64,000 bases of DNA from Anaeroplasmataceae bacterium (GTDB lineage Bacteria > Bacillota_I > Bacilli_A > Acholeplasmatales > Anaeroplasmataceae): contig CAVAQB010000092.1 of the NCBI GenBank assembly GCA_963590725.1, positions 32,864 to 96,863 of the forward strand, written 5' to 3'. The notes beneath the pieces were generated by a model. The model searched no databases and was not told the origin of the DNA. It saw only the letters and a program-made list of their open reading frames with translations. Shown one piece after another: positions 1-30,574 of the stretch; within the stretch, counting starts at the first letter, position 1; the number at the start of each line of letters is the position of its first letter. The translations under genes and the position numbers were made by a program.

Positions 1-2
1 CA

Positions 3-3000
3 GAACAACAAGAAGGTACTACTATTGATAAAATACCTGAAAATCGGTTAGCTAAATTAAAAGAAATTTGGGAAAAAAGTAATCCGTCAGAACAAGTACA
101 TATAGCTGCAGGTGTATTCCAAAACATAATAGAAAGGTCAAGTGTTATTGTAAATCAAAATGCGAAAGCATATACAGATTTATTGTCAAATCAAGAAGTA
201 CAGGAATTACAAAGATTAGCCGCAACTGTTCAGAATAATGCGTTTTTAGGGGATGATAAATTAGCAAGTGCTACTGATAATTTAAATGGAATGGCCATAT
301 CTTTGGCTAGTGCATTTAATGTTGACGATGCTTATAAGCAAGCTATTCAGGACAGAAATAAAGCCCAAGCTGAATATGAAGAAGTTAAAAAAGAAGTAAT
401 AGAAAATCAGAAACTTACTAATGAAGATACAACAATTAGTGAAGAAAATAAAAAAAATAGATTAACTGACTTAATACAAAAACTTGAAGAAGCTAAAGTA
501 AAAAGAGATGAAGCCATTAATAAGTCAAGTGAAATATTAGTATAGACAACAGCAGAAAGAATTAAAAATGGTATAGAGCAATTTTCACAACCTTATTTAG
601 ACCAAGGCTGGGCTAATACTCAAGTAAAAAATTCTTTATTAGCAATGATTAATTTTGCACATTAGTATTATGAAAAATTAAAATTAGAGCAATCGACTAA
701 AATTGGAGAAATAGAAAAAGATAAAAATCTTAGTAAAAATGAAGCTCTCGAACTAAAAAAACCACATCAAAAATTAGTAAGCCTTTATAACAGTAATAAA
801 AAACTTCTAACTAAAATTAAAAAATAGGTAATTAAATTAACTAATTCTCCTATCGAAGCTTTATTAGATCAATTTGCAATAAGTATTGATTCTAAAATTA
901 AAGCTAGTCAAATAATAAAAATTGCTAATGAAAGTTTAGAAAAATCTTCTTCTGATTTGTCTCAATATTCTTTGGCTGAAGATACAAGACAGCAATTAAA
1001 AGAAATTTTAATTCTCATGGATTTAGTTGCTAATACTCTATAGGGAATGAAAGTTGATAATGGAGATTTAGGAAATCTTTATGGATATACTAAAACTTTA
1101 AATCAAATTGCTCATAAAATAGGATTAGAGAATTATGTAGACATGGCTCAAATAGATTCTAACGTGGCTGAAATATTTTTACAAGATTTAAACGGAATTA
1201 GGTCTAGAGTAGCGTTTATGTTAAATGTTTTAAATATTAATCAAGGTTAGAAACTCGCTGAACATAGACGTGTAGGAATAAATAAAAACTATTTATTTTA
1301 TCAAAAAATGGTTAATTTTGTAAATACCGACGATGAAGATTGGAAAGATTTAGATGAGTTAAAATCTATAGTTGATAAAGCAGGAACACTTAAAAAATAC
1401 TATAAAGAACGTAAATTAGATATACCTAGAGAATCTGAAAAAGAAATAGAAAAAGAAACATTAGCTATAGAAGATGCAATAAATGTATTTTTTACTAAAA
1501 ACATAGATAAAGTTTCAGATGTTAAAACTTTTGGTAGTTTTATACGTAAATCTATAGGTGATTTATATGCTAATCCATCAGATATTTTAAATGTTAATAC
1601 CAAAACAATGGACGATAATTCATTTTTTTGGTGGTTAGCAACTAGAGCTGCTGTATTATCTACTGACTTTCATAAAGAATTTGCTGAAATTTAGGATGAT
1701 ACAATTGCGCCTATTCCAACACAAGAATTAGCAATTTATACTAATTATGCTAGTATAATGAATAAATCTATGTTTATTCATTTTTATAATGGACTTAGAG
1801 AAGCTATAAAAGAAGATTGGAAATAGAAAAATAAAGAACAACGACTTAAAGTAATTGAAAAACAAAATAAAGATTTAAAGTAGGTGTTTGCATCTTCTGA
1901 AAACGCAGAAGATAATGCTAAAGATTATGTATTTTTAGATGTAATAGCTCCCCGTTACGCAGCAATTACTTTTACAGAAGGTATCACTGGAAGTGGTAAA
2001 ACTAATGGAGTTTTTGCTCAAACTATAAAAATGATTAAAAAAAATCATTCTGAACTATTAGATAATGTGTTTTATGTATATGCTGCTGGTGATAATACTG
2101 AAGAAGCTTAGAAAAAAGCTAGAAAACATGCTGAAGCTGGTGCTATTAATCAAGGATTAGATCCTAAACATACTACTTTTATGAGTAGAGAGGATTATAT
2201 GAAGACTATCACTAGCAATAGAGATAAAGCTGAATATAAAGGCAAAGGTCAATATACTGTTAACTAGTCTAGAGTTATTTATAATGGAGAAGATTTAATA
2301 TCTAATAGTACTTTATCAGATTAGAATATTCCAACTTTAGTCTTTGTAGATGAGGTTACAAATATTGATTAGTTGGATTTGGATGATATTAATAATCACG
2401 CTTTAAAACATGGATATTCTGTAATAACAGCAGGCGATACTACACAGTCAGGAGTTCAAGGAGTAATTAATTTAAATGATACGAAAAGTTTAGGAGTTGA
2501 TATGACGACTGAGGCTACCTTAACTTTACAATTATTTCCTACTTATTTTCCAAGGTCTCCTAAACAAGGTGTATCTATGCGAACAGCAAATTCTCAAAAA
2601 ACTAGAAATCTAGCAGCATTACAAGCTTGGGTACAAGATTCTAAACAAACTATACCTTTACATTTTTATAAAGATGATGAGAAAGGAATAATGGGAGATA
2701 CGTATTTTGATCGTGATGATTGGGAAGGGAGTGATGTTAATGAGGATGAAGAAGTAAGTCAAGATTTAAAAAATGACATACAACTTATGATAGATACACT
2801 CAAACCTGATTAGAAGATAGGCTATGTTTATGAAGATGAAAATACTAAACTTTATAAGTTTTTAATGGATAATTATAAAGATAAAATAGAGTTATTACCA
2901 GGAACTACATCTCAAGGACAAGAAGGACAATATTATATTATAGAAATGGCTTCAAATAATCTTACGTTTGTAAAAGATATGTATACTGCTATTACTCGTT

Positions 3001-6000
3001 CTTCTCAAGCTAGTATTATAGTGTCTGACGAAGGTTTTAAAGGTGATCCTATAGAGGATTCTGAAACGCACGATGAATCTTTAGCACCTGAGGCGATTAA
3101 AAAATATTCAGAAAACAGAGTAGCATTATTAACAGATTTAACTAAATCGGGTAAAGATGTTGAATATATACCATTTATAGAATCTAAAAAGAAATCTAAA
3201 AAACCAGTACAATCTCCCGAATTAAAAAATGCTAATGATGTTATTCTCAAAGAAGGACATTGGATAATATATCCTGCAAATCCTGATATAGTAGCAAAAA
3301 TAATAAGTGTTGATTCAAAAAATAAAACTATAACTACTGAGCCTAGTATTCCAAATATAGATATAGATCAAATAAATGCTATATTTGACTCAGAGGAAAA
3401 TGCAAAAGCTACTTTAAATACACAAGAAACTGTAGAAGATTGGTTAAATAAAAATTCTATAGAAAAAGGTAATAAGGTTATAGAAAAAGGTACTAATGAA
3501 GTATATACTCTTATTGATATTGTAGAAGACGAAAACAACGAAAATAAACATATAGTTAAATTAGAAAATTCAAAAGGCGATAATCGTGAAATTAGTTTTG
3601 AAGATTTTTTCAAATCTAAATGGGAAAAATATGTAGATGAGCCTCAAATTACATCTATAAAATCTCCACAAGGTAAGGATATAACTATAGGTAGTTGGAT
3701 ATTACGTAAAGATGCCCAAACAGGTACAGGCATTATAGCTCAAGTTACTAAAATCGAAGGCAATAAATTAATTACAGAAGGAGATTTTTCTGAATGTTTA
3801 GTGTCTGATGTAATAAATGTTTCAAAGAGTAAATTAGGTTCATTGAAACAACAAGAGTCATATAATAAAAATTAGAATCTGAAATCAAAAGATGAAGTTT
3901 TGGATGACGATGGATTAGTTGATGATGAAAAATTACACGAACAAATAGAAACACTAAATTCAAAAATAAATAGATTAATTGATAATAATACTCCATTTGA
4001 AAATGATGCTTGTAATATTTATTTATATAGTTTTAATACTTGTGAAACAGGTGTTGATGAAGATATTGATGGTTTTCCAATTTAGTTTGGAGATTCCGAA
4101 TTAAAAACCAATCGTATAGATAGTATTAATGGTTTAATGAAACTTAAATTAAATAATAGATATTACAATTCTAATCCAAAACATCCTGAATTATTAACGG
4201 TTTAGCAATATACTGATATTATTTGTGAATTGAGAAAAATTATTCTTAATACAAAAAATAGAGACGATATAAGTAAAAAAATTCAAGATGTTCTTAGTAA
4301 ATATTTCGTTATTGAAAAAATTTCTAGTACATTTGGACTTAGTACACATATTGATGACGGTAGATCAACATCAACAGGAGAATTTAAAAGAGCTACTAGA
4401 ACACCTGATGAAAAGTTAAAATTTATAAATAATTTAGAAAATGATCCGAACGCTCAGAAAGCATTAAAAATTAGACGTAAAACAATATCTATTATTATTG
4501 CTGAAGGGGAATAGGATATATTGGAATTACCAATTTTAACTTTCGCTAATCCTTTGACATTATTTCAACAGTAGAAACTACCTTTATCATCAAATGATTA
4601 TAATGAATTATCTAAAATATCGGACTCTTATAAATTGTTAACAGAATTATTTAAAAAATTTAAAGATAACAATAAAGGTATCAGTAAATTAATTGCATTA
4701 TATTTAGGTATTAATATGGATGAAAAGCAAGGTTTGCATAATGGAGATTCTTTTATAGAATTTTCCGATAAAAAATGGACACCTAGTAATAATTTAACTA
4801 ATATGGGAGTTTCTGTAACATCTGATAATAGAGGTATTGATTATTTTGAACAAGGTTATAATATGATTCCTGTTTATACTGATATTAGTAAAATTGCGGA
4901 AAATAAAGCATTACATATCTCTGAATAGATTTATTATGTTGAAGATGATTTTATTTTAGATAATAACGGTGAACCTATTAAATTTGAAGGTAATGATTCA
5001 CTAATTCAATCAGGTATGCCTTTTGTATTAATTACAACTGATAATGATTTGTATGATGATACAGAAATGTATAATGCTTTTATAGAAGATTTAGCAAAAA
5101 TGTCTAAAGATACAACTAAAACCGCAAGAGTTAAATTAGTATATATTGTTCCACCTAGTGTAGGATTACAAGATTATGTTGAAAGTTTAGCTAAAGTAAT
5201 TACTAATCAAAACGGTGCTGAAGATATAGGATTTATATATACAGCTTATCATATTCTTCGAAAATTATCTGAAAAAGAAACTTTGTATAATTTGCTTTCT
5301 GGAAAAGTCACATTAAATAATGAAAAGAATTATATCAAAGCGATTAGTGATATGATTGAAGAATCTAAATCAAAAAATGAAGAAGAGTTAAAAAAATGGT
5401 TGAACGAAACTATAAATCATATTACGGTAGGTGTAAGTAAAAATAATAAACAAGGTTAGAGATTTGAAATATTCAAGCGTTTTCTACTCGATTTATATTA
5501 TCCATCGATGTCTAACGAAGGAAAAAAATCAAAAAATTCAGCAGGAAAACTAAATTAGGAAAACGCAAATTATTTAAACGATTTAGCTAAAAACATACCT
5601 ATTAGATATAGAGCAGCTAAAGATCCAAATGCAACAGATATAGGAATATTCCATCCAATTAAAAGCACAGGATATTTTTATAAAAATAATGCAGGTCAAA
5701 AAATTCCATTTTCTATTAACGCTGCCATTAATACTAATTAGTATATAGCGGATGTATCTAAATTATTAGATGATATATTAAATGTTAAAAAACATAAAAA
5801 CGATATGAGTTATTATATTAAACGTCATATTGTAGCTAAACCTAAAACAAATAATTCTTTAAATTCAGTTAAGACATTTGTAGAGAATGAAATAGGAATA
5901 AATGTAGATAGTTGTAAATCTATAGATGAAATAGTAAATACAATTAACAATAGTAGTAAATATATAGCTTTTAAGAATAAATATGATAATCGTATTACAG

Positions 6001-6506
6001 TATTTAATGAATGTGATTTAGATATAATATCTTTTGAAGATTTAAAAGGTAATTCAACTAACACTATTTCAAAAATAGCTAAAGGTAAATCAGTTAAATT
6101 AATTGCTGTAACAAAAGATGGTACTAAATTAGATGCGATATGTTCTATGAGTAAAGAAGGAAAACTTGAATTAGAAATAATACATCCTGATGATTCTTCT
6201 AATACTGGAATACAAATAACTGAAGAGATGTTTAACCAAATTCAAAATGCATTTAATGATGATAGTAATCCTAGAGCTAAATATATTGGTCGTACTGTAT
6301 TTTTTGACATCATATCAAACGGTGATGCAGATGTTGTACAAAAAGCAATTCAAGAGAAAAGTGAAAAACTTATAGACATGCTCGATGGTGTAATTGCACC
6401 TAATGTAGTACAAATAATGAAAGATATACATGATAGTAAACAAGAATAGAAAACAGCTTGTGAAAGGTCATCTACTATATTAAGTAGAGTAACACAATCT
6501 AAATGA
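3..6506 (+). CDS. Giant late/virion-type protein, 5' end outside the window (more than 2,160 codons). Contains a RecD/Dda-like SF1 helicase core and requires TAG read-through.
   Basis: One frame is open from base 3 to TGA 6504-6506 apart from about 23 in-frame TAG. ORF-track pieces 183..545 through 5805..6449 all share this frame. Motifs: Walker A GITGSGKT (1980-2003), Walker B VFVDEV (2340-2357), GDTTQ (2433-2447), TSQGQE (2907-2924), YTAITRS (2982-3002). Confidence 0.8.
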
Positions 6507-6543
6507 TTCAGATTAAATATTTAATTTTATAAACATATATTAT

Positions 6544-9500
6544 ATGGCAAAAATATGTACTGTAACCAACGAAGTCATTAATAAAATAGTAAATGAAATA
6601 AGTGAAAAACGACTAAGCGGTATACTTAACGGTGCTTCTAACGCTACAATTCTAAATGAAACAACAGCTTATTTAGCTAGTCTTAATTCACAATATAGAA
6701 TGACAGCAAAGGCCATTAAATTGCTCAAAACAAAACTTGATACTGTAGGTATAACAGCAGATGAAAGTACGTTCCCAACAAGAAATATGGAATCAATTAT
6801 TTCAGATGGAGGTAAGGTTGAGATTCCTACTGTTAATAACGATAATAGTACCACAAAACTTGAAGAATCAGAACGTAATGTATTAATAAAAGATGTTAAA
6901 AGTGACTTTTTAGTAAAAGCTTACGGTACAGCTACTGAAGTGCGCCAGGCTGCAGAACATTCTGCAGCCGTTGCACTTTTCAATAAAGTAGTTATAGACC
7001 GAGAAAACGGACGAAAAGTAGAAACCGAACATGATATAAATGATAATTTAAGACATTATCAGCAACAATTATTATGGACTATTAAAGAATATATAACAGA
7101 ACGAAACAAAAAAATTGGAGTAGATAATAGTATATGGGATGATATAACAATGTATAAAGAAGATAATGGAGTTTTAACTTATACAAAAAAAGTACACGAT
7201 TTAGAATCAGAAATATTAAAAGCATTATCTCATGATAATTTTCCAGATGAACTTCTAAATTTTTATTTTGAATCACCTGAAGGTAGTTATGAAAGAAAAG
7301 CATTAGACGCATATAATGCTTGGCAAATATTATCTCATTTTGATACTTTTGTACAACTACGTTATGGTAAATCTCTAGAAATCTCTAATTTCGGAGATAT
7401 GTTTTTTACTGGATAGGACAAATACAAAAAAGCAGATAAAGGAGCTAATAATAAAACCACTTGGCGTACAACTGAAGAAATTATTTTATCTGATGAAATA
7501 GATAAAATAGTTCAAGAAATGGTTACAAGTACACCTTTATATTCATATGGTTCTCCAATTCCTATGACAAATGCGTATTTAAGCTTTAATGCGTTTTGTC
7601 AAGTTATAGGTAAACTGAAAGATATAGGATGGAAGTCTGGAGATTTAGTATTTGATTTTAATAGTGCTAATCAAGTTATACGTGAAAAATCACAATTATC
7701 TAGCAGAAGTATGCGAGTTCTACAAGGAGAATCTATACAAAGTGTTATAAATAGAATAAGAGAAAATCCTTCTAAATATCTATCTGCTATACTTGAAGCA
7801 ATGTCTAATACATATTGGTATAACTAGTTAGCTCAAAAAGGATTTTTAACTGATTTTAATGACGACGAAAAAGATGTTATTTATACTATACATAAAGGTT
7901 TAACTGGTGATTATAATGAAAATTCAATTGCAAGTATTGACTATTCTTTATATGGACAAATTGCACAATCTGTAGATTCTATATTTACTGTAAAATTTTT
8001 ACAATATTATACAGGATTAGACGATGTGACTAAAGTTAGAAGTATGTCTGACGATAGATTAGATGGAATTATTCGTAATATAAAACAAAGTATTATTACT
8101 CAAAATAGTAAACTTAATCCTAATCATTGTATAATTCATGAAGATGGTACAGCAACTATTAGAGGTAATATAAAGATTATTCCTAATTTAGCTAATAAAA
8201 AATTACAATCTATTACTATAAAAATCCCAAATACTGAAATTGAAGCAACTATACAGAAAAATGGAGATGTTACATATAAAAGAAGTGGTAAAATTTTTAA
8301 AAGTTTTTCTAAATCTCCTACTCAAAATTTTTCACAATTGTGTGATTTTGTAACAGAAATAACAGGATAGAACATCAATCAAAATATAATTGAATTAGTA
8401 TGCAAAAGAACAACATCTGGAACAATTGATGCTAACAATTTTGGAGAATCTGAGAAAAAATTAGTAGATTTAGCTTGCAGAAGTGTATTTTTATCTTATA
8501 TATCAAATACAGAATTTGGAGGAATAAAAAGTAAAAGTAATTTATCTAAAAAAATTAAAGGATTTTTCGGAAACACATCTGTTAAGATTAATACAAATAT
8601 GCGAGAAATAGACTTGGTTCACAATAAAGATATTTCTACTATTGAACGATTAGCTAATGCAATAGCTATACAAAGAGGTTTATACGCTTCATCTGTAATA
8701 AAATCGGGAGACGGTAGTTCTTATTCTGTACAATCTTTAAGTCGTTTGATTGGTTCATTAAGACAACAATGGGAATTGCAAAATAAAAAAGACGATTCAG
8801 CAAGTAAAGGATTATTAATCTTAGACCCTGATGCATTTAAAGGTATTTATACAGCTCGTGAATATTATGATTTAACTAGAAGCACCGATCATACTGATTT
8901 TTCAGTTAAAGAATTTGGTTCTGCTATGTTTGTACAAGATTTCATAGGTGGTTTATGTGATAATAGTGATGATTTCAATCCTTTATTAGGAAATGGTAAA
9001 ATAGCTATTCTCCCATCTGTAAACTCTGATAAGAACACAATCGGACGAATTATAATAGACACTACTAAAACTGTAAATATAAATGGTGAAGATATTCAAA
9101 TTCGTAATTTAACCATTGATTAGTTAGAAACATTTATATGTAAAGAATTAGGTCAACTTTATAGTAATATATTATATAGAACTGATGCTGATTTCGATAA
9201 ACTATTTACTTGGATAAATCAAACGAAAGGATTGAATATTAAAAGTAAAAAAGCTAGATTAACTTTAGATAACACATCAGGTCTTTCTAAATATAATAAC
9301 GAAGCATTTTTTGCTGAATTTAATGAAGCATTTAAATTAAGAGAAACATATATAGACCTAGATGGAACCGATATTAATTTATCTTGGGATGAAATAGTGG
9401 CTAATAATCCAGATGCTGAGTCTTATGAATTCTTAGGAGTTACTTATAAAAAAGGACAGAAACCTAAAAAACTTTATGAATCAGCAAAAATATTAAATTC

Positions 9501-12500
9501 TTTTATAAAAGAATATAATTTAGCACATAGAAATAATCCTATATCTTTTACAGACCAAGTACATTTTATAGAAAATAAGGATGGAAGCATTGGAGTTAAT
9601 AGTGTATTACAAGGTTATCAATCACGTTTTAAAAATCCAACAGAATTAAATGAATTCTTTTATAGGAAAAGCACTGATGTTTTAGGTACTTTATTAAGAA
9701 ATAATTTTAGAGTAGACTTAGCAAATGATTCTAAACAAGCAACTTATATAAAACATTATTTCAAAGATAATCCAGAGTGGATTAATAAAGATAACGGTGA
9801 AATGGTTTTAGGTAAATTACGCATTTAGAATGATACTGAAACAGAAGTAGAAGTAGAAGTAGACATTATAGGTCAAAACCATTTAAACAATTTTTATTAT
9901 TAGTTATCTCATGATGAAGTAGAAACTAAAGGTGAAGTAATTACAAGGTTAAGTCCACTTAGTAAGATTAAACAAGCAGAAGCTGAACTTGAAGAAACTA
10001 TAAATAAACATAAAGACAAAGAAGGATTTGAATATACTTTAGCTAGAGAAAAACGTAGATTAGACGAATTAAAAAGACTACGAGAAGGAATAATAAAAAA
10101 AGAAATTTTATATAATCCTCAATTAATAGCTGATTTACATGAATTTGGAGTTGAATTTGAATTAAATCCTTTACTTAATCAATATAATCATTTAGATTAT
10201 TTGTTCTCACAAGAATTTATGATTTCTACTGTAGGTTCTTTGATAGCACATCCCGCTAAAGGAGCTTTGAATAATAGTCTTGAAGCATAGGAAGCAGCAC
10301 GTTTTAACGCACAACATAAACGTAATGTATCTTACACAGCAGCAATGCAAGAATTTACATTGGGTTTAATGGATGGAATACCTTCCGATTATAATATTGC
10401 TGTAGTTAAAGATGTATTTGATTTAGTTGGAAATGTTACTGGTAATGAAGATTCAGTAAAACCCTATGATGGTGCAACATTCGTAAATCCATTTATTGTT
10501 TATTTGGAAAACGCTTCATTAGGTGCAGCTAAAGCGGGTATTACTAAGAAACAATTTGTACATTTTTATGATGAACATACTGCTACAGGTGGTATTATCA
10601 AAACTTGTGGTTTTGGTATTACTAATGATTGGATGCGCAATTCTCCTAGACTTTAGAAGTTAATGCGTAAAATGACTAATGGAACTTGGATTGATTCTAA
10701 AAATTAGCCAGTGGATTTAGACATCACACATGCTTATGATGATTCAGAAATAGGATATGACGATATATATTTTAGAAAAAATGGACAATATTATCATATA
10801 ACATCTATTAAAAAAGTTGGAATTAATGCTTATGATATAAAAGGTACTGTAGTTGACGTAACAAATAAGTCTGGGCAATTACAAGCTAAATACAAAGAAG
10901 AATCAGATGAAGTAAATTTAAATTCTTTATTTGGAGGAGATGAAAAAACTCCTGTTATTATTGATAACAACTATAAGTTATGGGAAGTTTTTGGAGGTAA
11001 GAACTCACTCATTTTAGATAAAACTGAATTAATTCCTTCTGAAACATCTATTACTAACGTAGTTAAAACTATGAATAGTGTAGGTATTACTCAAGAAGAT
11101 GCTAGTAATGTTAGAACTCAAGATGATATTTATCAACCTCTTAAACATTCTGATATACATTATGTAGCAACAGAAGGAGCTGTAAAACAAGGAGCTGCTA
11201 ATATAAATACATCTGATTTATACGATGGAGATAAACCTCTTAACTTTATGAGAATTCATATGTACCAAGCAGGTATTCAGTTGGATAAAGAACATCACGC
11301 TGATAATAGTGAACTTTCTTTGATGACGCAAGTAGTTAATGCTTGCGCACATCTTGGATATAGTTTAGAGGAATCTTTAAGTATGTTCAATGCTCTACGT
11401 AGTATTACTGATACTGATACAGCTGTATTACTTGATCCAATTAAAGATTATTTATCATCTGATAATGAAATAAGTAAAGAAATTAATTATAAAAAAGCTA
11501 AAGAAGCTATTGTAAATACTGTATTAAAAGCAATATCTAAACAAACATTACAAGATAATGATTTATTACGAGTATTTGCAGACGATTTGATAACTACATT
11601 GAAAGAAGGTGGAGTACTAAAGTATGATGATTTCAAAGATACATTACCTGTTGATAACCCTGGAATTTATTCCAAATTCATGTCTTCTATATCTGTATTT
11701 TTAACTAAAACAGGTATTAAAATGAAAATTCCAGGAATTCTTTCAGTATTGACTCCCTCTTATGGAATAATGTTAACTTATCAAATACCTGTAGTAAAAA
11801 AGGATAAATCTATAGAATGGCATACTTGTAAATGGGAATAGGTTGAATCTTATGCGGAACAAGCAGGTATGTCTGTAGAAGAATATCTAAATACTATACA
11901 AATTAACGCACCTAAAGTAAAAAGTACTAAAGTTGAAAATAACGAAATAAATTTAAATATAAGTAATTTCCGATTAGGTAGAAGTTATTTTATGAGAATT
12001 GGAGGTAAAGATAAAGTTATTAAAATTGATAGTGCTAAGAAATATAAAGCTTGGAAACAAAGAATCTTAACCGATGCTACTATAACCTCAGTTGTAGAGG
12101 ATATAAGAAAAGGTAGAGAACTTGGAACTTACGATGTAGAATTTGAAGGAATAATAGATTCAGAAACATCTTTACATTCATTATATGATTTAGACTCTAT
12201 TTAGAATTTATATGATTTAAAAGATGCAATAGATAGTAAAGATAAAAATGTTCTTATAAACTTTGTTGCTAGGTTAGGTTATTCTGATTTTATAGATATT
12301 GAAAAAGAAACAGTTGATGTTAAAGGTGTTGAAAAAGCTTTACGTAAATTAGTACGTCGAGATTTAGCTGTTTTTTCTAAAGATGGTGGAAAATTCTTTG
12401 AAGATTTAAAAGCTAAAGAAGTATTTGTTAAGATAAATGGGGAAAATGTTTTGGTAAATCGTTCTACAATAAAGAAGACTGCTTATGAAATGGTTTTACC

Positions 12501-15500
12501 TAAAATATTCATAGAAGAATTTGGATTAGAAACTAATGACCAATTAGATGAAATAGAACATGACCCTATGTTCTTTAGTAAACGATTGGTATAGAAATTT
12601 ACTAAAGAAATTGACCCATTTCATTATGATATAGCTTTAAAAAATATTAGTGGTAAACATTGGTATTTAGCTGAAAAAATTGCTGTTAGTACAGCTAAGA
12701 TATTCCAAAAATTGGAAATTTAGAAATTCGTAGAAGATAATAAATTGTACTGGATTGATAAAAACGGAAATCAAATATGTGAATTATATAGTGATAAAGA
12801 TGAAGTTTACAGAGATCAAGAAGGTAATTATATAATAGTTCCAGGAGAGGATGAATCTAAAGGTATTTCTCAAGATGAAGGATTTGTGCATTATCTAAAT
12901 CATTTAAACTATTCTACTGTACAAATAAGTGGAAGTGAGCATGTAGATGATTAGCTGTTTGAAATATATCTTGATTTAATTAAACAAAGTAACAATCGTA
13001 CTGCAAGACGATATGTTAAATATATAACAGCAGAAAATGTTACAGGAAATGATTATACAACTGATGGTCATACTGATTAGGATTTAGAAGCTCAAGCAGC
13101 TGCGGATAATATGAGAGCAATGAGAGAAAGAAATAATTAGTTCTCATTATATAAAGAAAGTGATTTAGATTCTTCTGAAAATCCTATAACTAAAATGCTT
13201 GTTGAACTTGGACATGAAATACATTCATCGTTTATAAAGTCACTAGAAATAGTAGCTTCAAGAACACCATCACAGTCAATGCAGTCTTTTATGCCAATGC
13301 GTATAGCAGCATTTGATAATCCTAATTTAAATACTGCATACGTTAGTACAATGCAAATTTGGTTGCAAGGTTCTGACTATGATGTTGATGCCGTTTCTGT
13401 TGCAGCTTTTGCCATAGATAAAAGTGGCAAGCTTCCTTTATGGTCACCTTATGCTAATATAAGTACACTTTTTTCTTTAAATCAATCAATGGAATTACCT
13501 TTCCCTACTGGTAAAACTATGAATGTCATAGACTATAAGTTAAATCAGTTGAAAGATGAAGAAAGAAATGAAAAAGAAGCAATAATAAAAGAAATCTATA
13601 CAAAATATTTAAGATCTGGTTTATTTGTATTTGCTCGTAAAAATGATAGTTTTGTTTTAAAGTTTAATAATGAATCTAATAACTTACCTGCAATTAAAAC
13701 ATTTTTAGAAGAAATAAATGCAAATGGATTACCTCTTCCTTTTTAGAATTTTGAAAAAGAAATTCTCAACTAGGAAATTCTTGAAAAATTATTCCCCGAT
13801 GTTGTAGATTTTAGTACTTTAGATTTTACTAAATTAAATATATTTGATGATATATAGAAATTGGTAAATAATCATAACTTATATTTAACTAAATTACCTA
13901 AATCTAAAGTAGACCAAATATCTAAGAATAAGTAGATGTATGATATGTATAATATCAGCAATGACCCTATTAATTTGATTCAAGCTCAAGCTCCTGTGGA
14001 TGTAATGACAGGTCCTTTAAAGGAACAAGGTGATAAACAGCAAGCCAATAAATTACTTGGAAACAGAACTCCAGGAAATGTATTTAATAAAGCAGAATCT
14101 ATTGAAGATAATCAAGTTGGTAAAGATGGTATCGGTATTTGTGCTGTTGGTTTAAAAGGATTTTTTGGAGCAACTACTTATGCAAATATGCTTGCTAAAT
14201 ACGGGGAAAATGATGAACTCTCTCGTTTAGTTTTAGGTAAAGAGGGAATTAAAATACATGTTCCTGGACAAATAGAGCCTAAAGTATTCAAATATATGGC
14301 TAATATCAATCCTCAACTTAGTATGTTGGATGGAAGTAACACTGAAAAAATTCTTTATGAAGCTTTAACTAATAATAATTCTGATACTGATGCTGCATTG
14401 ATTCTATCAGCTTTACTTAGTTTGGCTACTGATAATGCCAAAGAGCTACAGTTGAGTAAATTGAATGCTGGAACTAAAACTATTGGAATGTATATTTATG
14501 GTACAGCTATAGGTATGGAATTTCAAGACTTAGTTAAAATTATGACTTCTGATGTAGCTTTGATGATTACAGATTTAACTAAAGGTAATGTATTTACTAA
14601 TGAAAAAGGTTTATTCTCCTTAGATAGTGTATTTAGTTATTTAGAAAATGGTCCAATGTCTTTATTAACCAAATACGCTAATCCTATTATTCATGACGGT
14701 ACTGTTTATACAAGCATATTATAGCAAGTGGGTAATTTTTTAAATAAGAAGATGGAAAATAAATATGGTAAAGATTCAAGAAATTTAACTTTAAATCAAG
14801 TTTTAGGAAAAATAGCTTGGATTGGTCAAACTAATAAACAGATGCAAGAAGAATGGAATAAATTAAATAAGAAAGGTAAGAGTGAATATAAAAATAATTT
14901 TTATGAATTCCGAGTTGCTAAACTAAAAGCTGAGCGTAATGAAAAAATAAAATTATTGAATGATATGAAAGCTAAAAGTAAGCTTAAATATTCAACAATT
15001 TTCGGAAGAGCATCTACTGAATACGCATCAGAACAAGATATGCAAAAATTCAACTAGTGTATAAGTAGACTTCAAGATTATGTCAGACAAGTATATGTTG
15101 TGAAAAATCATATGTCAACATATAGGTCTATTAAAACGTTGGCTGAAGGCGGTGAAGAATTTAGAGTATTAGGTCAAATTTTAGGTTTGAACCAAGGATT
15201 AAAAACTAAGCCTGAAGAATTATTGTAGAAAGTATATAGTATTCAAAATATAATCCAAGATAGATATAACGTAGAATAGAAAAAACAAAAAAGGGATTAT
15301 ATAAGAAATGCCTTACATGATACATCTTTAAGTAAAAAGATAAACATTCATAAAAATACAACTTGGAAAATGTTTGATTTATTCAAATTCTGTACAGATG
15401 ATGAATATAAAGCAGCTTAGACTAAAAAATATGATACAATAAAACACAGCATTAATATATTAGATGTAGCAGCTACTGTACCTCATTTTGCAGGATATTT

Positions 15501-16830
15501 ACAAACCTTAGCATTAGCCCATGAAGCTTGTAAAACAATAAGCTCTAAATATCGCACAATTGATAAATTAGCTGGAAATTATGAAGAAGGAAAATATGAC
15601 GGATATGCTAACAGATTGAAAGTAAAAAACTCACAAGATTTACAATATCTGTTTAAAGGACTTGGTAATTTTTATTCTGATTATATAAGACGTGCTTGGA
15701 TGATTGATAATGGTATTACTTTGGATATTCCTGAAGGAACAAAAATATTAGTTAATGGTAATTTGAAAGATTCAGAAACTATATTACAATTAGGAACCAG
15801 AGACGGTGATGCTTCATTTAAATATTTAATGGATTCTGTAATAATTCCTACTATTAAATAGGGTAAATTATCAGCATCTCCTAATATTCATACATTACAA
15901 TCATTATTAAAAAATAAATTTATATAGAATTTAACAACGAGTTTAATTACTAATACTCCTACTAAAAACCCTATAGTTCTTTATACTTTACCTATAAACA
16001 TGATGCCATCTTCTGATGAAGAGTATCAAGTATTTAATACTTATAAATCAGAATTTAATAAAATTCGAGATTATAAGTGGACTTTTAATAATGGAGTTCA
16101 AATACCATTAGTAGATTTATTCTATTATTACGGATTAATTGCACATTATGGTAAACAAGGCCCTCAATCTTTAATGCCTATTTTTGAAAATTTACATAGT
16201 TTTAAAAACTATAAAATTAATGATTTTCATAAATATGAAGCGGCTTTTAATGAAGATTTAAGTAATATTGGAGAAGAATCTTTATTACCATATATATTAC
16301 CTGTTAAAAGTTTATATGATATTACTACTAAAAAAGGATATGCTAAAGATCCAGATAATATGTTGACTGTGTTGTGGGTAAAACAAAGTAAAACATCTGA
16401 AGACTATGGTGATTATGATGAAGATTTAGATGATGAATATACAAGTAAAAGAAAAAAAGTAATTAATGGATATGTTAAACAAGTCAACCCGTTATTAAAT
16501 TCTGATTATGTTAATTCTTATTCCACCATTGCTAATATATCATCTAATTTGATAGATGGTCCTAAAATCTTTACATACACTAATAAAGAAAATGGAATTA
16601 CATATAATGTAAAAATAACAGAATTTAAATTTGGAGAAAAAGAAGTTTCTGTAGAAGGATTAGATGAATCTACTATTGAATTTTTGAAAAAACATCCAGA
16701 ATTGAATAAAGCTGAAGTAACTAAAAAAGTATCTAGTGTTACAGGTCGTAATGTAACTATTAGCGAAGAATATTATAATGCCGCTATAGAACAAGCTTTA
16801 GCAGAAGAAACAAATAATTGTCCTAAATAA
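6544..16830 (+). CDS. Giant RNA polymerase-like protein (crAss-like phage virion RNAP type), 3,428 codons with about 27 in-frame TAG
   Basis: ATG 6544 to TAA 16828-16830. Fourteen ORF-track pieces (6544..7416 through 16000..16830) share one frame and are separated only by TAG. SRTPSQS followed about 35 residues later by GSDYDVDAVS (DxDxD at 13375-13389) resembles the metal-binding loop of two-barrel RNAPs. Confidence 0.7.
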
Positions 16831-16832
16831 TT

Positions 16833-17891
16833 ATGCCGTTTTGTATAAATGTTAATTCGTCAGAATATCAGATTTTAAAAAAGAAATCTGGTATTTCTGA
16901 TGAATTTAAATTAAAAACATATTGTAGACTTTTTCTAAATAAATATGGAAGGTTTCCTTATGTGGATGAAATTGTAGGTTCTAATTCAGAGCCTGCTTTA
17001 AGAGAGAAATTAGATATGTCAGAAAATGGTACAAGCGTAGATAATTTATTACAAGCTACAGGTGCTCAATCAGTACAAGAAGCTAATATAAAATTAAATG
17101 ATGAATATAGAGATTTAGAGATAGAAGTTACTCCGATTCAAGATGAAGCTTATATTGAAATAACTCATAGACCAACTATAAATAATTTTGAAGAAGAAGT
17201 TGTTGAATATGATGACACTACTAATAGTCAAGCTTTACTTACAGAAGTTATTGATAAATTAAGTAGATTATATGGAATTAATATTATTGCAACTACAACT
17301 GATGAATTAATGAGTGATGAATGGGTAGATTTAGTAAGAGATGCTAAAAATACAAGTGCATTTATATACAATGGAAATATTTATATTAATACTGATGTAG
17401 CAGATATAGACGCACCATTACATGAAATGATGCATTTATTTTTTGGATCTATTCGTTTTACAAATCCTGAATTATATACTCAATTATTATAGATTCCTCA
17501 AAATTTTGCAGACTATAATTTAATGATAAGAACTTTTAAAGATAGAACTCAAAATGACATTAATGAAGAAATATTAGTTAATGAATTTGCAAAATATTTA
17601 GTAGGAAAAGAATCCCAACTGAATGGAATTGATCTTACCACTCAACATGAAATATTTTATAATATGAATAGAGTACTAGATTCGGTTTTAATGGGACAAG
17701 ACAGTGTTAATGTTATAGATATATCAGAAATTGGAGATATGTCATTAAGAGATTTAGCTAAAAAAGTACGTTCATCTGTTTTAAATAATTCTTTTAAAGG
17801 GACTTTAGATGATAATAGTATACATCGTATAGCTATGAATACTAAATCAGATTTATTAAGAGAAGGTAAATTACAAGAATATTGCTCATGA
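16833..17891 (+). CDS. HExxH (zincin-like) metallopeptidase-motif protein, 352 codons with one in-frame TAG (17490-17492)
   Basis: ATG starts 2 nt after the upstream TAA. HEMMH lies at 17421-17435. ORF pieces 16833..17492 and 17523..17891 share a frame. TGA 17889-17891 overlaps the next ATG (ATGA). Confidence 0.65.
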
Positions 17892-20800
17892 GTTGTGTAT
17901 ATTTATTAGACGGACATCAATTTAATTCTGAACTAGAATTAGATGATTTTTTAATATCGAAAAATAGGTTTAGAAAAAGACTTGGAGACATAGTTTTTCA
18001 AGAAAATAGAAAAGTTGCATAGTTAGATACTGTAAATAAACTTGAGGAAATATTAGAAGAGACACAAAAACTAAAAGAGAAAAAAACTAAATATAATAAA
18101 AAACTTTTAAGAGAAAAATCTCTTACTGAACTTTATTTAGATACAGGACACGCTGTAATTAGTGAAGAAAGAGAATCTGTAAATTTAAAGGCACCTTATG
18201 TAGGAGTAAACGCTTTTTTAAATGGATATATTAACGAGGAAGGCAAGTTATTGTTTCCTGAATTTATTCCAGATAATTATTGGGCAGAACAATATAAAAT
18301 GTGGGGTGATGGAAATACAGATGAAGAAACTCAAGAATTTTTAAAATCTTATGGCTTATTTACTAGTACAGATCCTCATTTTAAAAATAAGGATTAGCAA
18401 GAACAAGAAAAATGGAAAAATGCTATAGAAGATAAATGGAAACATCAATCTATAATAGGTGATGTAATGCATACTGTTTTACAAATGTATTTCAAAAAAA
18501 TAAACTCAACTAAGAAAGATGGTAGTCCTAAATATTTTAAAGATTGGATAGCAGAAAATCCAGAAAAAGCATTAGCTGCTTTTAAAGAACAATTATATAA
18601 TAAAGATTTACTTCAAACTGACGGTTCAAAAATAAAAGTAAAAAATTATATTAATGATGAACAATTATAGTCAGCTCTTGAAGTTTGTAAAAAAATAGAA
18701 GAAGAACTAAATATAAAATATCCTGATGCATTATATTATCCAGAATACGAAATAACAGGAAAAACTGCAAAACCTGCGTCTAATGGAGTTGACACAATAT
18801 TAGGTTCTATTGACTTACTGGTAGTAGATGCGAACGGAGTACCTCATATTATAGATTATAAAACATCTATACATCCTTATGAAAAATTTGACGATAGTAA
18901 AAAATTAGCATATACTTATCAGTTACTTACTTATGGACGTTTAATAGGTAAATCTGGATTAAACATACATGATTCAGAATATAACGTTATTCCTATTCAA
19001 ATATCTAATTTTCAATATATATAGAATAATAAAGGTAATGGAGAATTTTCATATTCGGGATTTCATTTAAAACAAGGCGAAAATATTTTTGTAGATTTGC
19101 GTGCAGAATATGCTAATACTCGAATTAATAAAAATCTTGATGAAATTATTGATTTTCCATATACCGTAAATGTTACAGCTGATGAAATGCTTACAAATGT
19201 TAGTAAATTTCAATAGAGTTTCTGGAAAAAATATACAACATTTAAGCAATATACTATTGAAGAAGCTCAAAAAATAGCAGAAGTTAATAACGCTTTAACT
19301 CCTAATGAAAATGGAGTATTAGAATTTAAGCCGAAATATATGAAAAAAACTGAAACCATTAAAGTTGATCCAAGAATAGAAAAAAATCCTAAAACTGTAA
19401 TGGTTAAAAAAGTTCAAGAATATCTTAACAATAAACGATATAATTAGAGAGATCGTTTAGTTACTAGTACTAAAAAAGCTTTAATAGAAGCAATTAATAA
19501 GAAAAATATTAACAGTGTTACATTTACTGGGGATATTGGTGAAGATTGGTTTTCTAAAATGATGAGTCGTTATTGTAGTGGTAATTGGGAAGTTTGTGAT
19601 GGAGAATCTTTTAAACCATTAGAAGCTTTAGGTATAATTACTTTATGGAATGCTAATAATAGACAATACAATTTTGTAAAAATTTCATTACAAAATATAC
19701 AAGGTCGTTTCCGTTTTGGTTCTAGTTCTAAAACAACTTTAGGTGGAGGATTTAAAAGTGATGTTTATTTTAAATCAAATCCTGATTCTATGATGATGGA
19801 CGCTACTTACGGCAATATAGAATTAATGGAAACAATGTACGCTTTAAACAAATTATCTGATATGTTTAAGGGAGATAATGCTTGTGTAGGTGATATATTA
19901 GTTGCAGATCCTTAGTTTGGTATAGGTGTTTCAGCAGCATCCAATTATGAATTATTAAAATGCTTTAATGAATTAGTAGAATTAAATCCTGAAGCATTAG
20001 GAACTAACAATTTCAAAAATGGTACAATTCCTATGGCATCTAAAGTACAACTCGCTCGTACAATGCTTACAGATGTTAAAATTAAAGAATCTGTTAATCC
20101 TTTTGCTTTCGGATAGAAAAATGAATCCACACTGGAAACAGCTCAAAGTAGTTTGGATAAAGCGTTACTTACTCCTGAGAATGTAAACGAACAAATAGAT
20201 GCATTGCAAAAAGTAATTAATTCATTAGAAAGTACTGATAAAAACAGAGAATTAGTTAATTATACAACTAACTCTTCTATTCTTGCTAAAGAACACGTAG
20301 CTTTATATAATCAATGTATTCTTGCAATAGCTGAATTAAAAGGAATACATTTTAGACAGCAAATTCGAGACCATGCACAATTAGTTGAATCACTAAATAT
20401 ATTACGTGATGGAGTTCAAGGTACTCAAATTGACAACCCTGGCAACTTGAAATCTGAAACTCTTAACTTAATTACTAAATTAGTAACGGAAGCATATCAA
20501 AATGTTAGACAAGATATATAGAAACCCGCAAGTGAAATATTACAATATGTAGAAAATTTGAAGAAAGAAAAAAACTTCGGGTGGTTTACAGAAAATACAA
20601 CAGGAAATCAAGCAAGTTTATATACACATATGTATGAATGGAGAGATGACGATGTTTATTTTAAAAATCCTTGGGATAATAATAATGATTTACTTGCAAA
20701 CGAGAGAGAATTTCTTAAATATGCAATACCTATAATTAATAAAAATCGGTTTGGTAAAAAAGCAGATCAAATGAGATTTGATAATCCTGACAGATATTAT

Positions 20801-22783
20801 AGAATACCTATTTGTGAAGGAGATACTTCTGTTAAAGCCGCAAAAGACGGATTACTTGAAGCTTTTAAAGATAGACTTAAAGGATGGATGCCTAAACGAG
20901 CATTAGAGAATGCAAGAGCTAAAGCTGGTCAATTTTTCGATAAGGATATTGAAATTGAATATACAAAAAGTTAGAAGAATGCAGAAGATTTATTTAAAAT
21001 GACCAACATGTTTGATTGGGGCGAAGGTTCAAACCGAGCTAAATTAATAAAAAGAGGTAAATATGAATTAAATTTGGAAACTCTATTATTAAAACATTAG
21101 TTTGCTTACATTATGAAAAATAGAGTAGATGCTGTATTTCCATTAATTAAAGCTTCTATGATTCATTTAACAACTCAAGCTTTTATGAATAGAAATGCTT
21201 CAGGTTCAACATTTAAAAATGATTTAAAATACGCTGAAGATTATATTAAAAATAAAATTCGTAATGAATCTATTATTGATGAAAAATTTAGAGAAGGAGC
21301 TGTAATGATTAATAAATTTAAAACATTGGCTTCTACTTTAGTATTAGGATTCTCTCCAGTTCAATTTTTATATCAAAGTATTCAAGGTATTTGGAATGAT
21401 ATTTCTCTAATTATTCGTAAGCCTGATGGCACAGATGCATTTACTTTAAGTAATATGTTACACGCTGCAAAAATTGTTTATTCAGATTTAGCTCATATAG
21501 GAGATAAGCCTAGTATAGTTGAACTATTTAATAGATTATACGGCGTTAATGATATGGATATGAATAGTTATATTGAGCATATTAAATCTGACCAAAATGG
21601 TATTTTTAATTTTAAAAATATGGTTTGGAAATTTGCATCTAGACCAGACTATTATAATAGAATGACAATTTTCGTAGCTAAAATGATAAACGAAGGTTCC
21701 TTTGATGCACACAGTATTGATGAAAATGGTAATTTAGTTTATGATTCTTCTAAGGATGCTAGATATAGAACATATCTTATGAATGATAGATCTAATATGG
21801 ATGAATATAATAAAGCGAAAGCTTATTATATAGCAGCAGCTAAACAATTTGAAAAAGAAGGAGTACTTAATCCTGATGGAACTCCATTTAAGTTTGATGC
21901 TTCTAAACGTCAAAACTTACCTAGAGCTTATACCAATTTGGAAGCAGAATCTATGAAATCTTTAGGAGATACAATTTATGGTTACTATTCTCATGAAAAG
22001 AAATCTATGATGCAAGCAACTTTATGGGGTGCTTTATTCATGCAATTCAAAACATATTGGTCAGGTAAAAAGAATCAGTATTTAGCATCGGGTGGAATTA
22101 GACTTGAAGGTAATTGGAAACCATATACTGAAAAAGATGAACTTGGAAATGATATATATTACTATTATTAGAAAGATGAAAAAGGTAACATTCTTTATAA
22201 TGAACCTCCTGTTAAAGCAGGAGACCCAAATGCTTCTGATGCTGTAGTAATACGATGGGAAGGTAATTGGAAAGAAGGTATTGTTGCCACTATGTATCAA
22301 CTTACTAATAATATGTATCATCAAGGAATTGCTAATGGTTGGGATAGTATGTGGAATAATGAGGATTTAAACTTACGTAATACTTATCGTTCTAATATTA
22401 AACAACTTGCTTATGATACTATAATGTTCTTAATAGTTGGTAATTTATTAGGAGCTGCTTTAGGTATGGGATATGAAAAAATGAAAAAAGATGCAGATCC
22501 AACAAATTTAGGAGATGCTTTATTATTATCAGCTGTAAACATAGGTATCAAATCTATACGAAATTCTTTCTTAGATTTCAATTATATAGCATCAATTGGA
22601 GACCCTGCTGTAAGTTGGACTCCATTCTCATTTGAATATTTAGGAAATCAAGTTTCTAATGTTTGGGATGTAATAATGGGAGAATAGAATTTCTGGTTAG
22701 GATTAAGTAAGACCACTTCATTATTTAATCAATTTAAACCTGTATTCTCTACTCTTAAAGAAATCACTAAAGAAAACGGATAA
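17888..22783 (+). CDS. Large late protein (1,631 codons, about 13 in-frame TAG) with RecB/Cas4-like PD-(D/E)XK nuclease motifs near the N-terminus
   Basis: ATG 17888 to TAA 22781-22783. ORF pieces 18467.., 19559.., 20153.., 20558.., 21113.. and 22292.. share a frame. Motifs in order: GDVMHTVLQ, GSIDLLVVD...IIDYKTS (18803-18868), YTYQLLTY. A hydrophobic segment IMFLIVGNLLGAALGMGY lies near the C-terminus. Confidence 0.7.
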
Positions 22784-22792
22784 GAAAAAAAT

Positions 22793-22830
22793 AAGGGCAC
22801 CTCAGGAAAATTAATTCCCAAGGTGCCCTT
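22793..22830. terminator. Bidirectional intrinsic terminator at the convergence of the two modules
   Basis: Perfect 10-bp stem aagggcacct (22793-22802) / aggtgccctt (22821-22830), with an A-run upstream and T-rich sequence downstream. It sits between the TAA at 22783 (+) and the stop at 22835 (-). Confidence 0.8.
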
Positions 22831-22834
22831 AATA

Positions 22835-23254
22835 TTATTTTATAAGTTGTGATATTTTATCATTAATATACCAGATTGCTTTCTTTAAATCTTCTACTGT
22901 TTTATCGTTATCAGTATAACCCTCTTCAGATTTATGACCGCTGCGTAAGATGTATTTAATAGCATTACCAAGGTCAAAGTCCATGTGTCTAGTAATATCA
23001 ATTACTTCAATTCCACACTTATCTTTCAACCAAGTATAATGAGAAGGATGATTTACTTTATCATTTTTATTTAAAGCATTTTCTTCATATATACAACTAG
23101 CAAGAACTGCTGTTATTGCTTCTGGGTCATCAGATATTGATTTATCTTTATCTCTATTATGTAGAGTATGTCCTATAAGTTCAAGTCTATCACCTTTTTC
23201 TGCAAATAAACCGTAATAAATATACGGGTCTTCTCTGTTATAAATGTACATCAT
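22835..23254 (-). CDS. DUF3310-like phage protein
   Basis: The NHPSHY...IEVIDI...GNAIKYILR pattern is typical of the DUF3310 family. It is the last gene of the minus-strand array. Confidence 0.55.
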   Translation of the reverse strand: MMYIYNREDPYIYYGLFAEKGDRLELIGHTLHNRDKDKSISDDPEAITAVLASCIYEENALNKNDKVNHPSHYTWLKDKCGIEVIDITRHMDFDLGNAIKYILRSGHKSEEGYTDNDKTVEDLKKAIWYINDKISQLIK

Positions 23255-23408
23255 AATTTATAAAATTTTAATAAAACCAATAAAAATATCTCATATTTAC
23301 CGCCACAGTTTCGATGTGTTGGATTTTCTATACTAATCTAATTAATCTATCAGGTGAGATACAAAACGTCTCTACAAGTCTGAAAATGAGTTTATAAGGA
23401 TTTTGTAT

Positions 23409-24074
23409 TTAAAAGCCTATTTCAAGGCATAATGGTTTATAAGCTGGCTCATACAGTTCATTTATAAAACTAGTATTATATACTTTAGTTTTTCCTAAAT
23501 ATTCATATTCGTGATTACTAGAATGTAAATGTCCATGTACAGCGTAAGTAGGATCTTTCTTTAATATAGCATCTCTCAAAGCAATACTACCTAAATGTTC
23601 TCTATTCCAACCTTCAAAACATACATCACTAGTTCCATACGGAGCATCATGAGTCATAAGAATATCTATATGTTCTGGAATATCATTATAAAGTTCTTCA
23701 AGTCTTCCTTCATTTGCATTGTAAGCCCAATTGCCAAATTCTTTACAATATGGAGTTCCGAAAATTATAAGTCCTTTATAATTATAAGAACAATGGTCTA
23801 GAAAAGTTACCTTCTCATCTTTAGGGAAAACAATTTCATACCAATCTTCATGTCCTTCTATACACAAATCATGATTACCCGCAATAAATAATACTTTATC
23901 ACAAGGAAGTGCTTCTGCCCAAGGTTTGAATTTGGTTCTATACCATTTTCGCCCTTTATGAAAAGAAGATTGAACCTTTAAATCTACTATATCTCCACAA
24001 ATGAGTAGTAAATCACAAGGTTCAATTTCAGGTAAATTTCCGTGTAAATCAGACGTTACTATTACTTTCATCAC
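23409..24074 (-). CDS. Calcineurin-like metallophosphoesterase
   Basis: Motifs SDLHG, CGDIVD, AGNHD, THDAPYG, GHLH. Confidence 0.8.
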   Translation of the reverse strand: MMKVIVTSDLHGNLPEIEPCDLLLICGDIVDLKVQSSFHKGRKWYRTKFKPWAEALPCDKVLFIAGNHDLCIEGHEDWYEIVFPKDEKVTFLDHCSYNYKGLIIFGTPYCKEFGNWAYNANEGRLEELYNDIPEHIDILMTHDAPYGTSDVCFEGWNREHLGSIALRDAILKKDPTYAVHGHLHSSNHEYEYLGKTKVYNTSFINELYEPAYKPLCLEIGF

Positions 24075-24243
24075 CTTTATAATAAAGTGGTCCAGCTACT
24101 TGTAAACCCTTAATCTCTTTTACATCGTTTGCAATTAATTCTCTTGCTTCATCGAAAGATTTAGCTGCTATATAAATATATTTAGCATCTTTAATCTTGT
24201 CCATCAACACTGTTGCTACATACAAGGTTGTTTGTTTTCTCAT
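24049..24243 (-). CDS. Hypothetical small protein
   Basis: 64-aa ORF overlapping both neighbours; the true start may be internal (Met14). Confidence 0.4.
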   Translation of the reverse strand: MRKQTTLYVATVLMDKIKDAKYIYIAAKSFDEARELIANDVKEIKGLQVAGPLYYKGDESNSNV

Positions 24244-28635: not shown

Positions 28636-28931
28636 AATTTAGTAGATTTCAGAAATTCTATAATATATCCAGCATAAGTGTTAGATTCTTGTTCAGAATA
28701 CTCACCACACGAATGCCATTGAAATACGTGTAGAACTTCGTGAATAAGTGTATTTAAAATCTGTTCATCTTTTAATTTAATTAAATCTTTATTATCATCT
28801 TCTACGTGAGTAGCGATTCTAATTACATCAGTAATACTGTTATAATCTCCGAAATCTTGATTGGGTAGTGTATCCACTACCTCAATCTTGATTTCTTGAG
28901 AATTAATAGTAAATTTATCAGGTATTTTCAT
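28617..28931 (-). CDS. Small HExxH protein, ImmA/IrrE-like metallopeptidase core
   Basis: LIHEVLHVFQWH motif preceded by FGDY...IRIA, a pattern typical of COG2856-type peptidases. It overlaps the sigma start by 19 nt. Confidence 0.5.
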   Translation of the reverse strand: MKIPDKFTINSQEIKIEVVDTLPNQDFGDYNSITDVIRIATHVEDDNKDLIKLKDEQILNTLIHEVLHVFQWHSCGEYSEQESNTYAGYIIEFLKSTKLCEILK

Positions 28932-28935
28932 AAAT

Positions 28936-30568: not shown

Positions 30569-30574
30569 TTGATA

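Follow-up and report, generated by a model that had tools for sequence, protein, structure and literature searches.

TAG as a sense codon for glutamine in the late genes of a large crAss-like gut phage

The DNA analyzed here, referred to below as the window, is a stretch of 64,000 nucleotides (nt) of contig CAVAQB010000092.1 (positions 32,864 to 96,863, forward strand) with a G+C content of 28.6%. It belongs to a crAss-like gut phage with a large genome of about 158 kb, probably of the zeta-like type. The first 22.8 kb of the window are occupied by four plus-strand genes, here called gA to gD, whose reading frames contain TAG codons; lengths of proteins are given in amino acids (aa).

3..6506, plus strand: gA, C-terminal 2,167 codons of a giant protein of 3,091 aa, with an SF1-type P-loop NTPase region; 23 in-frame TAG, terminal TGA at 6504
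1980-2006, plus strand: Walker A motif of gA
2337-2357, plus strand: Walker B motif of gA
6544..16830, plus strand: gB, giant protein of 3,428 aa with a GSDxDxD motif; 27 in-frame TAG, terminal TAA at 16828
13369-13389, plus strand: GSDYDVD of gB; G-S-D-x-D-x-D is invariant in the family alignment A4
16833..17891, plus strand: gC, HExxH protein of 352 aa; 1 in-frame TAG, terminal TGA at 17889, which overlaps the gD start (ATGA)
17421-17435, plus strand: HEMMH of gC, the HExxH motif
17490, plus strand: the single in-frame TAG of gC
17888..22783, plus strand: gD, giant protein of 1,631 aa; 13 in-frame TAG, terminal TAA at 22781
18446-18958, plus strand: PD-(D/E)XK nuclease domain of gD (aa 187-357), matched by PDDEXK_1 (PF12705) with E=1.8e-8, above the Pfam cut-off, and by phrog_69

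A codon-by-codon count over the 7,578 codons of these frames gave 64 TAG, no TAA, and no TGA. The recount reproduced exactly the TAG numbers and terminal stops reported for each gene in an initial annotation made from the letters alone, and the in-frame TAA or TGA that this annotation feared it had overlooked does not exist. In the two off-frames of gA to gD, by comparison, TAA occurs 332 and 663 times and TGA 89 and 456 times, and frames that are open except for TAG are therefore not the outcome of chance or decay. All four frames proposed at the outset are real, except that 3..6506 is not a whole gene: it covers the C-terminal codons of gA, whose start lies upstream of the window, as seen from the full-length protein (P0064).

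We then compared gD with 39 full-length homologous proteins (1,511 to 1,721 aa) and with 73 DNA relatives from IMG/VR. The best protein match, P0001, is the window gD with all 13 TAGs written as Q, which means that some public pipeline has already applied code 15 to the NCBI contig of 157,910 bp that is the source of both P0001 and P0064, proteins identical to those of the window. Among the 73 DNA relatives, 29 had a gD without any in-frame stop, while the other 44 were broken by TAG alone. The 43 recoded gD sequences that were full length contained 15 to 58 TAGs each (median, 35), and the window gD has the fewest of all recoded versions compared; its TAG share of Gln plus TAG is about 20%, against a median of 42% in the recoded relatives. 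Use of TAG as the terminal stop of gD divided the two groups as well, with 17 of the 29 standard-code relatives ending in TAG and none of the 43 recoded ones. The gB frame of the standard-code relatives was open, in most of them, across the roughly 2,970 codons held per locus, and pairwise alignments to relatives spanned the whole length of the plus-strand genes. The homologues of gD and gB therefore do not stop at the TAG positions.

The same TAG-only pattern was found in independent assemblies from ENA, Logan, and IMG/VR. It also extends beyond the four genes: on the late strand of one relative (L078), six of eight genes, from the muzzle gene through gA and gB, hold 4 to 29 in-frame TAGs each and no other in-frame stop. 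Conserved regions run across the TAGs. The frame around the GSDxDxD region of gB is unbroken across 27 of them, and the PDDEXK_1 match in gD crosses the TAG at aa 261. Recognizable motif sets spanning TAGs had been claimed for both the nuclease and an SF1 helicase; the first holds, while the second is weak in the window, where the AAA_30 match of gA (aa 723-816, E=0.006) lies below the Pfam cut-off. This match crosses the TAGs at aa 755, 774, and 790 around Walker B, and gA is called an SF1 helicase because its homologues carry PF13245/PF13604, which are SF1-type domains. Taken together, these results make TAG a sense codon in gA to gD.

The meaning of TAG was read from the closest recoded relative, represented by two independent ENA assemblies, L074 and L078, with 71% amino acid identity overall (84% in gD and 62 to 70% in gA and gB). 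Of 61 aligned window TAGs, 23 faced CAA or CAG and 14 faced TAG, so that a Gln or TAG partner was present at 37 sites (binomial p=1.7e-20 at a Gln background of 3.8%). The reverse comparison, from the TAGs of the relative to the window, gave Q at 23 and TAG at 14 of 60 sites. Gln thus made up 23 of the 47 non-TAG partners, and no other residue faced a window TAG at more than 5 sites; the single TAG of gC faces CAA in L074. Where the partner of a TAG was not Gln, it was mostly D, S, K, E, or N, and a similar spectrum (E, K, S, D) was seen opposite the ordinary Gln codons of the window, which had a Gln or TAG partner at 72% of sites versus 61% for the TAG codons. Looked at from the window's residues, the relative's TAG faces 8.95% of Gln positions versus at most 0.9% of the positions of any other residue. 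The composition of gD balances too, with 3.31% Gln and 0.80% TAG adding up to 4.11%, while the two closest relatives that lack recoding contain 4.07% and 4.56% Gln. More distant gD homologues with the standard code (at most 40% identity) gave no amino acid signal at the TAG columns, which are variable sites in a set dominated by one clade.

These comparisons indicate that TAG is read as Gln (genetic code 15) in the four late genes, where it writes about 20% of the Gln positions (64 of 324). Glutamine had been suggested from the start, together with a tabulation of the residues at TAG columns, and CAA/CAG leads the partner codons by a wide margin whichever way the comparison is run. The 14 TAG positions common to the window and its closest relative imply that the recoding is older than the split between them.

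The rest of the window follows the standard code. On the minus strand, 92% of 22835..64000 is taken up by 75 standard-code open reading frames (ORFs), and in-frame TAG is absent from all 12,513 codons (P about 1e-46 if TAG were as frequent as on the plus strand). The ORFs end with TAA in 43 cases, TGA in 26, and TAG in 6, and TAG otherwise occurs only in a few upstream ORF extensions, within intergenic or overlapping sequence. The module and its six TAG-terminated ORFs, each of which ends where the initial annotation had placed it, are as follows.

22835..64000, minus strand: replication and nucleotide-metabolism (early/middle) module, about 75 standard-code ORFs
25926..26768, minus strand: LAGLIDADG endonuclease ORF inside an interrupted DNA polymerase gene; TAG stop
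30624..30929, minus strand: ORF of 101 aa; TAG stop; the orthologue in L074 ends at the same residue with TAA
37856..38347, minus strand: NrdG-like activase of 163 aa; TAG stop; Fer4_12 profile matched over positions 1-137 of 137; next in-frame stop 3 codons on
53027..53362, minus strand: ORF of 111 aa; TAG stop
53870..54085, minus strand: ORF of 71 aa; tandem TAG TAG
63388..63576, minus strand: ORF with a TAG stop

Three of the six ends could be confirmed. Besides the 101-aa ORF, with its orthologue, the NrdG-like protein is complete at its TAG because the Fer4_12 profile is wholly matched, and 80 homologues of the 111-aa ORF reach its C terminus, most of them ending no more than 1 to 2 codons away with TAG, TAA, or TGA. 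Judged by orthologue ends or domain completeness, TAG is a genuine terminator at 30624, 37856, and 53027. In the 71-aa ORF, the two tandem TAGs (TTTAGTAGG) overlap the start of the next gene, and the next TAA lies 44 codons downstream. The replication genes fit the standard code of the host, TAG being an ordinary but rare stop there, and recoding is confined to the late block. The two modules had been proposed to be decoded under different rules, early and late. This is at bottom a proposal about timing. The early genes fit either code except at the six stops, where read-through would add only 3, 44, 4, 3, 9, and 10 residues.

The strand switch between the modules, at about 22.8 kb, is visible in the GC skew, and one further element lies in the 51-nt gap between the convergent stops of gD and a DUF3310 gene.

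22792..22831, no strand assigned: hairpin with a perfect 17-bp G+C-rich stem between an A-run and a T-run

This hairpin is probably a bidirectional intrinsic terminator.

The minus-strand genes comprise DUF3310, two metallophosphatases, the interrupted DNA polymerase, a sigma-70-family gene, an ATP-dependent DNA ligase, dUTPase, ThyX, NrdG, NrdD, a Toprim primase (a weak match, E=5e-4), an AAA_24 ATPase, DnaB, an SF2 helicase, and RNase H. The replication set (DnaG-type primase, DnaB, SNF2/SF2 helicase, AAA ATPase, ThyX, dUTPase, and ribonucleotide reductase) matches the crAss-like block. On the plus strand, the order helicase-like, DxDxD, HExxH, and PD-(D/E)XK protein fits the crAss transcription block, and in L078, whose gA is 60% identical, the genes directly upstream of the gA orthologue are a PF25731 crAss_MUZ gene and other late genes interrupted by TAG alone. 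In gene content, in genome size (relatives have contigs of up to 197 kb), and in the way recoded lineages are interspersed with unrecoded ones, the phage agrees with the zeta-type crAss-like phages described earlier (PMC7886860). A zeta-type placement of the window is probable from gene content and size, the TerL, major capsid protein, and portal genes lying outside it.

Direct similarity searches with the plus-strand module returned little. PHROGs gave no match for gA, gB, or gC, and gC has neither a Pfam nor a PHROG family. A megablast of 1-22783 against a phage collection gave no match, and tblastn of gD and gB against the same collection found three distant unannotated gut-phage records only; one of them, MT835470, was read whole and is uninformative, being neither recoded nor provided with a tRNA. 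From its motif, its gene context, and the published description of the block (PMC7886860), gB may be the virion RNA polymerase of a transcription block of the crAss type.

No tRNA lay within 10 kb of gD in any of 47 loci or in L078. In relatives, the tRNA arrays share the strand of the replication genes and begin to appear a few kb upstream of the SF2 helicase gene. In one relative (L114/L177, 1770-1840), a CUA tRNA occupies the same position as the tRNA-Gln(CUG) of its sisters (L141, 2567-2639; L109/L112, 3837-3909) and is near-identical to it. In the anticodon the two differ by G36 to A; the anticodon stem is altered on both of its strands, and the D-loop has lost 2 nt. Compared in this way, the two tRNAs show that a tRNA-Gln(CUG) was converted to CUA in a related phage, which illustrates the one-base route to an amber suppressor. 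A pattern scan for this tRNA found no other IMG/VR contig, and a metagenome scan with the right-edge ORF of the window returned distant phages only, all of them without a CUA tRNA.

Some neighbors in these arrays are unusual in their own right. Odd tRNA-like genes were seen in L180 (7984-8053), L221 (772-844), L181 (9551-9625), and L274 (320-404). The L180 element directly follows tRNA-Gln(UUG) and has a degenerate 5-nt anticodon loop, others have anticodon loops of 8 or 6 nt, and one distant phage has a UUA (ochre) anticodon. Extra Rfam tRNA matches considered as suppressors were rejected: one was an Arg-like tRNA, another an armless tRNA-like element, and in a third the anticodon loop was degenerate and 5 nt long. 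ARAGORN also called transfer-messenger RNAs (tmRNAs) with tag peptides in or near the arrays of relatives (L166, 6604-6915; L167 and L168, 6606-6923; L169, 6650-6964; L274, 15220-15549), and a phage-borne tmRNA is curious in relatives of phages that read through stops.

Our preferred interpretation is that of a TAG-to-Gln reading (code 15) restricted to the late block of a large crAss-like phage, with a phage-supplied amber suppressor as the most likely mechanism, and we give it a probability of roughly 0.88. The plus strand would represent the end of the late block, encoding the giant proteins of the "transcription block," which the crAss-like phages studied so far produce late and carry in the virion. 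A phage-supplied tRNA-Gln with its anticodon changed to CUA would accumulate during infection, possibly assisted by interference with release factor 1 (RF1). Full-length late proteins would then be made only after the code switch, which would act as a temporal gate on virion and cargo proteins. By analogy with related phages, we infer that the CUA tRNA is carried elsewhere in the genome of the window phage; late timing and an involvement of RF1 would likewise follow from analogy.

Several observations weigh against this interpretation. The window, 64 kb of a genome of which about 94 kb lie beyond it, holds no tRNA detectable by ARAGORN or Rfam, whether with gathering or with permissive thresholds (E up to 1). 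Seven TAG-recoded relatives, of which 20 kb each were inspected (up to 10 kb from a marker gene), have tRNA-Gln(UUG) and no canonical CUA tRNA by ARAGORN or Rfam. The evidence from L114/L177 consists of its tRNA. In addition, the protein and expression data on late timing come from other phages, gB had no match among solved structures in PDB sequence and profile searches, and 24 of the 61 aligned TAG sites face non-Gln residues in the relative.

Release-factor and aminoacyl-tRNA synthetase families were missing among the scanned minus-strand ORFs (30 of the 33 with at least 137 aa), and the three unscanned ones (209 to 215 aa) are too short to be either; the early statement that the window holds no suppressor tRNA, release factor, or synthetase was thus correct.

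The lack of a tRNA in the window and in the seven relatives' arrays, together with the odd element adjoining tRNA-Gln in L180, could mean that TAG is read as sense without a canonical phage tRNA(CUA), by a host suppressor, by near-cognate decoding with an abundant phage tRNA-Gln combined with RF1 inhibition, or by a highly divergent, non-canonical tRNA. In the zeta group, recoding and detectable suppressors agree imperfectly (PMC7886860), and the missing CUA tRNA of the seven relatives is in line with that published mismatch. Each genome, however, is visible only in part, a CUA tRNA of tRNA-Gln origin is present in a relative, and published amber-recoded zeta genomes do have CTA tRNAs (PMC12386605). 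We regard this explanation, with its twin that the TAG-poor lineage of the window decodes UAG without a canonical phage tRNA(CUA), as unlikely. As many as 27 TAGs in one protein demand a high efficiency at each site, which is not expected of near-cognate reading. Less probable still is that TAG stands for another amino acid (for example, Tyr, Leu, Ser, Trp, or Pyl) or is ambiguous. The non-Gln partners just mentioned speak for it, as does the label "Pyl" that ARAGORN gives to CUA tRNAs, although this label is the program's default. Against it stand the excess of Gln among the non-TAG partners over background, the placement of the relative's TAGs at Gln positions, and the Gln balance with unrecoded relatives; moreover, the one CUA tRNA that turned up is almost a copy of a tRNA-Gln.

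Finally, the plus-strand frames could be pseudogenes, assembly artifacts, or separate short genes that share a frame. Standard-code translation does yield 68 fragments, and the JGI/IMG annotation of one relative shows nothing but short "hypothetical protein" fragments. This explanation is refuted by the data, since TAA and TGA are absent from the frames and occur by the hundreds off-frame. Similarity to standard-code homologues spans the full length, and the TAG-only pattern recurs in independent assemblies from three sources. The TAG positions are mostly unshared among relatives (14 of 61 shared) and hence are not boundaries of domains or genes. That 14 positions do recur in independently assembled relatives, with no other in-frame stops, also upholds the initial rejection of pseudogenization and artifact.

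The reading of TAG as Gln from a phage-supplied suppressor has close counterparts among known systems. Zeta-group genomes of 145 to 192 kb read TAG as Gln, for the most part in late genes, the transcription block being among the regions with in-frame stops, and their RNA polymerases are described as extremely divergent (Yutin et al. 2021, PMC7886860). The window shares with them the size class, the use of TAG only, Gln as its meaning, and the location in the late part, including the giant DxDxD and PD-(D/E)XK proteins. It also shares the interleaving of standard-code and recoded lineages, homing-endonuclease insertions, DNA polymerase replacement, and a suppressor that is not always detectable. 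What differs is that the lineage of the window is TAG-poor (13 in gD versus 15 to 58 in 43 recoded relatives), and nothing differs in kind. In the Lera-type zeta phages (proposed Echekviridae, PMC12386605), a replication block, with tRNAs in most members, is similarly opposed to a structural and packaging block; suppressed stops occur in RNA polymerase, helicase, and structural genes, and amber-recoded, that is, amber-suppressing, members carry CTA tRNAs. Lera itself, unlike the window, reads TGA as Trp and uses TAG only as a stop.

Among human-gut crAss-like phages with code 15, TAG is Gln late, in structural proteins, and early genes fit the host code, as in the window; metaproteomics supports code 15 late in infection for those other crAss-like phages, while the window phage is known from sequence (Peters et al. 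2022, PMC9523058). A possible trigger of the suppressor switch has been discussed (PMC10879173).

A cellular parallel is supE (glnV) of E. coli, a laboratory amber suppressor of partial efficiency that is a tRNA-Gln with a CUG-to-CUA anticodon change. The same one-base route separates the CUA tRNA of L114 from the tRNA-Gln of L141/L109; unlike supE, the change in the window phage would be part of a program by which late genes are read genome-wide. Borges et al. (2022) reportedly proposed a model of lytic-gene regulation in which TAG is Gln late and early genes remain compatible with the host code.

Two neighboring minus-strand genes deserve mention.

27790-26885, minus strand: 5' ORF of the DNA polymerase, 301 aa
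27787-28635, minus strand: sigma-70-family gene, complete, with regions 1.2, 2, 3, and 4 all above Pfam cut-offs

The DNA polymerase gene (phrog_1252; 24748-27790, minus strand) is interrupted exactly at profile position 333/335. The 5' ORF is followed by an insertion of about 1.1 kb that holds the LAGLIDADG endonuclease ORF (26768-25926, minus strand), and the 3' part is a frame of 341 codons, open from 25773 and without an ATG before 25437. The interruption looks like an intron with a homing endonuclease, but a group I intron was not detected in this gene by Rfam. At the equivalent place (16276-19988), L074 has a polymerase of the Pfam DNA_pol_A family, for which tblastn found no counterpart in any part of the window; the sigma-factor gene and the 178-aa ORF on its flanks are conserved between the two. 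The pattern suggests that the polymerase was replaced between phages whose gD proteins are 84% identical, a kind of event reported for crAss-like phages. A homing endonuclease is seen at gB as well: in the nearest standard-code relative (L076 and L077, 4951-5655), an insertion encoding a LAGLIDADG_2 endonuclease divides the gB homologue into two ORFs. The gB of the window is uninterrupted by an endonuclease, and that of L001 has its frame broken at the position matching this insertion.

The sigma-70-family gene is 84% identical in L074 and has homologues in 14 of the loci compared; the main text of two papers on the zeta group never uses the word "sigma." Its product may guide host RNA polymerase to phage promoters of the middle or late class.

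Late-gene-restricted code 15 in crAss-like phages, including in-frame stops in the transcription block, has already been published (PMC7886860, PMC12386605, PMC9523058), and the window does not introduce a new principle. Its practical consequence is for annotation, as the four plus-strand genes need code 15 and the standard code shatters 22.8 kb of conserved late genes into meaningless fragments. The point that it touches is where the UAG-decoding machinery resides in lineages without a detected suppressor tRNA; should decoding without a tRNA(CUA) turn out to be true, it would offer a handle on the mismatch between recoding and suppressors in zeta-type phages. Overall, the window adds one more phage in which a code switch separates early from late protein synthesis.

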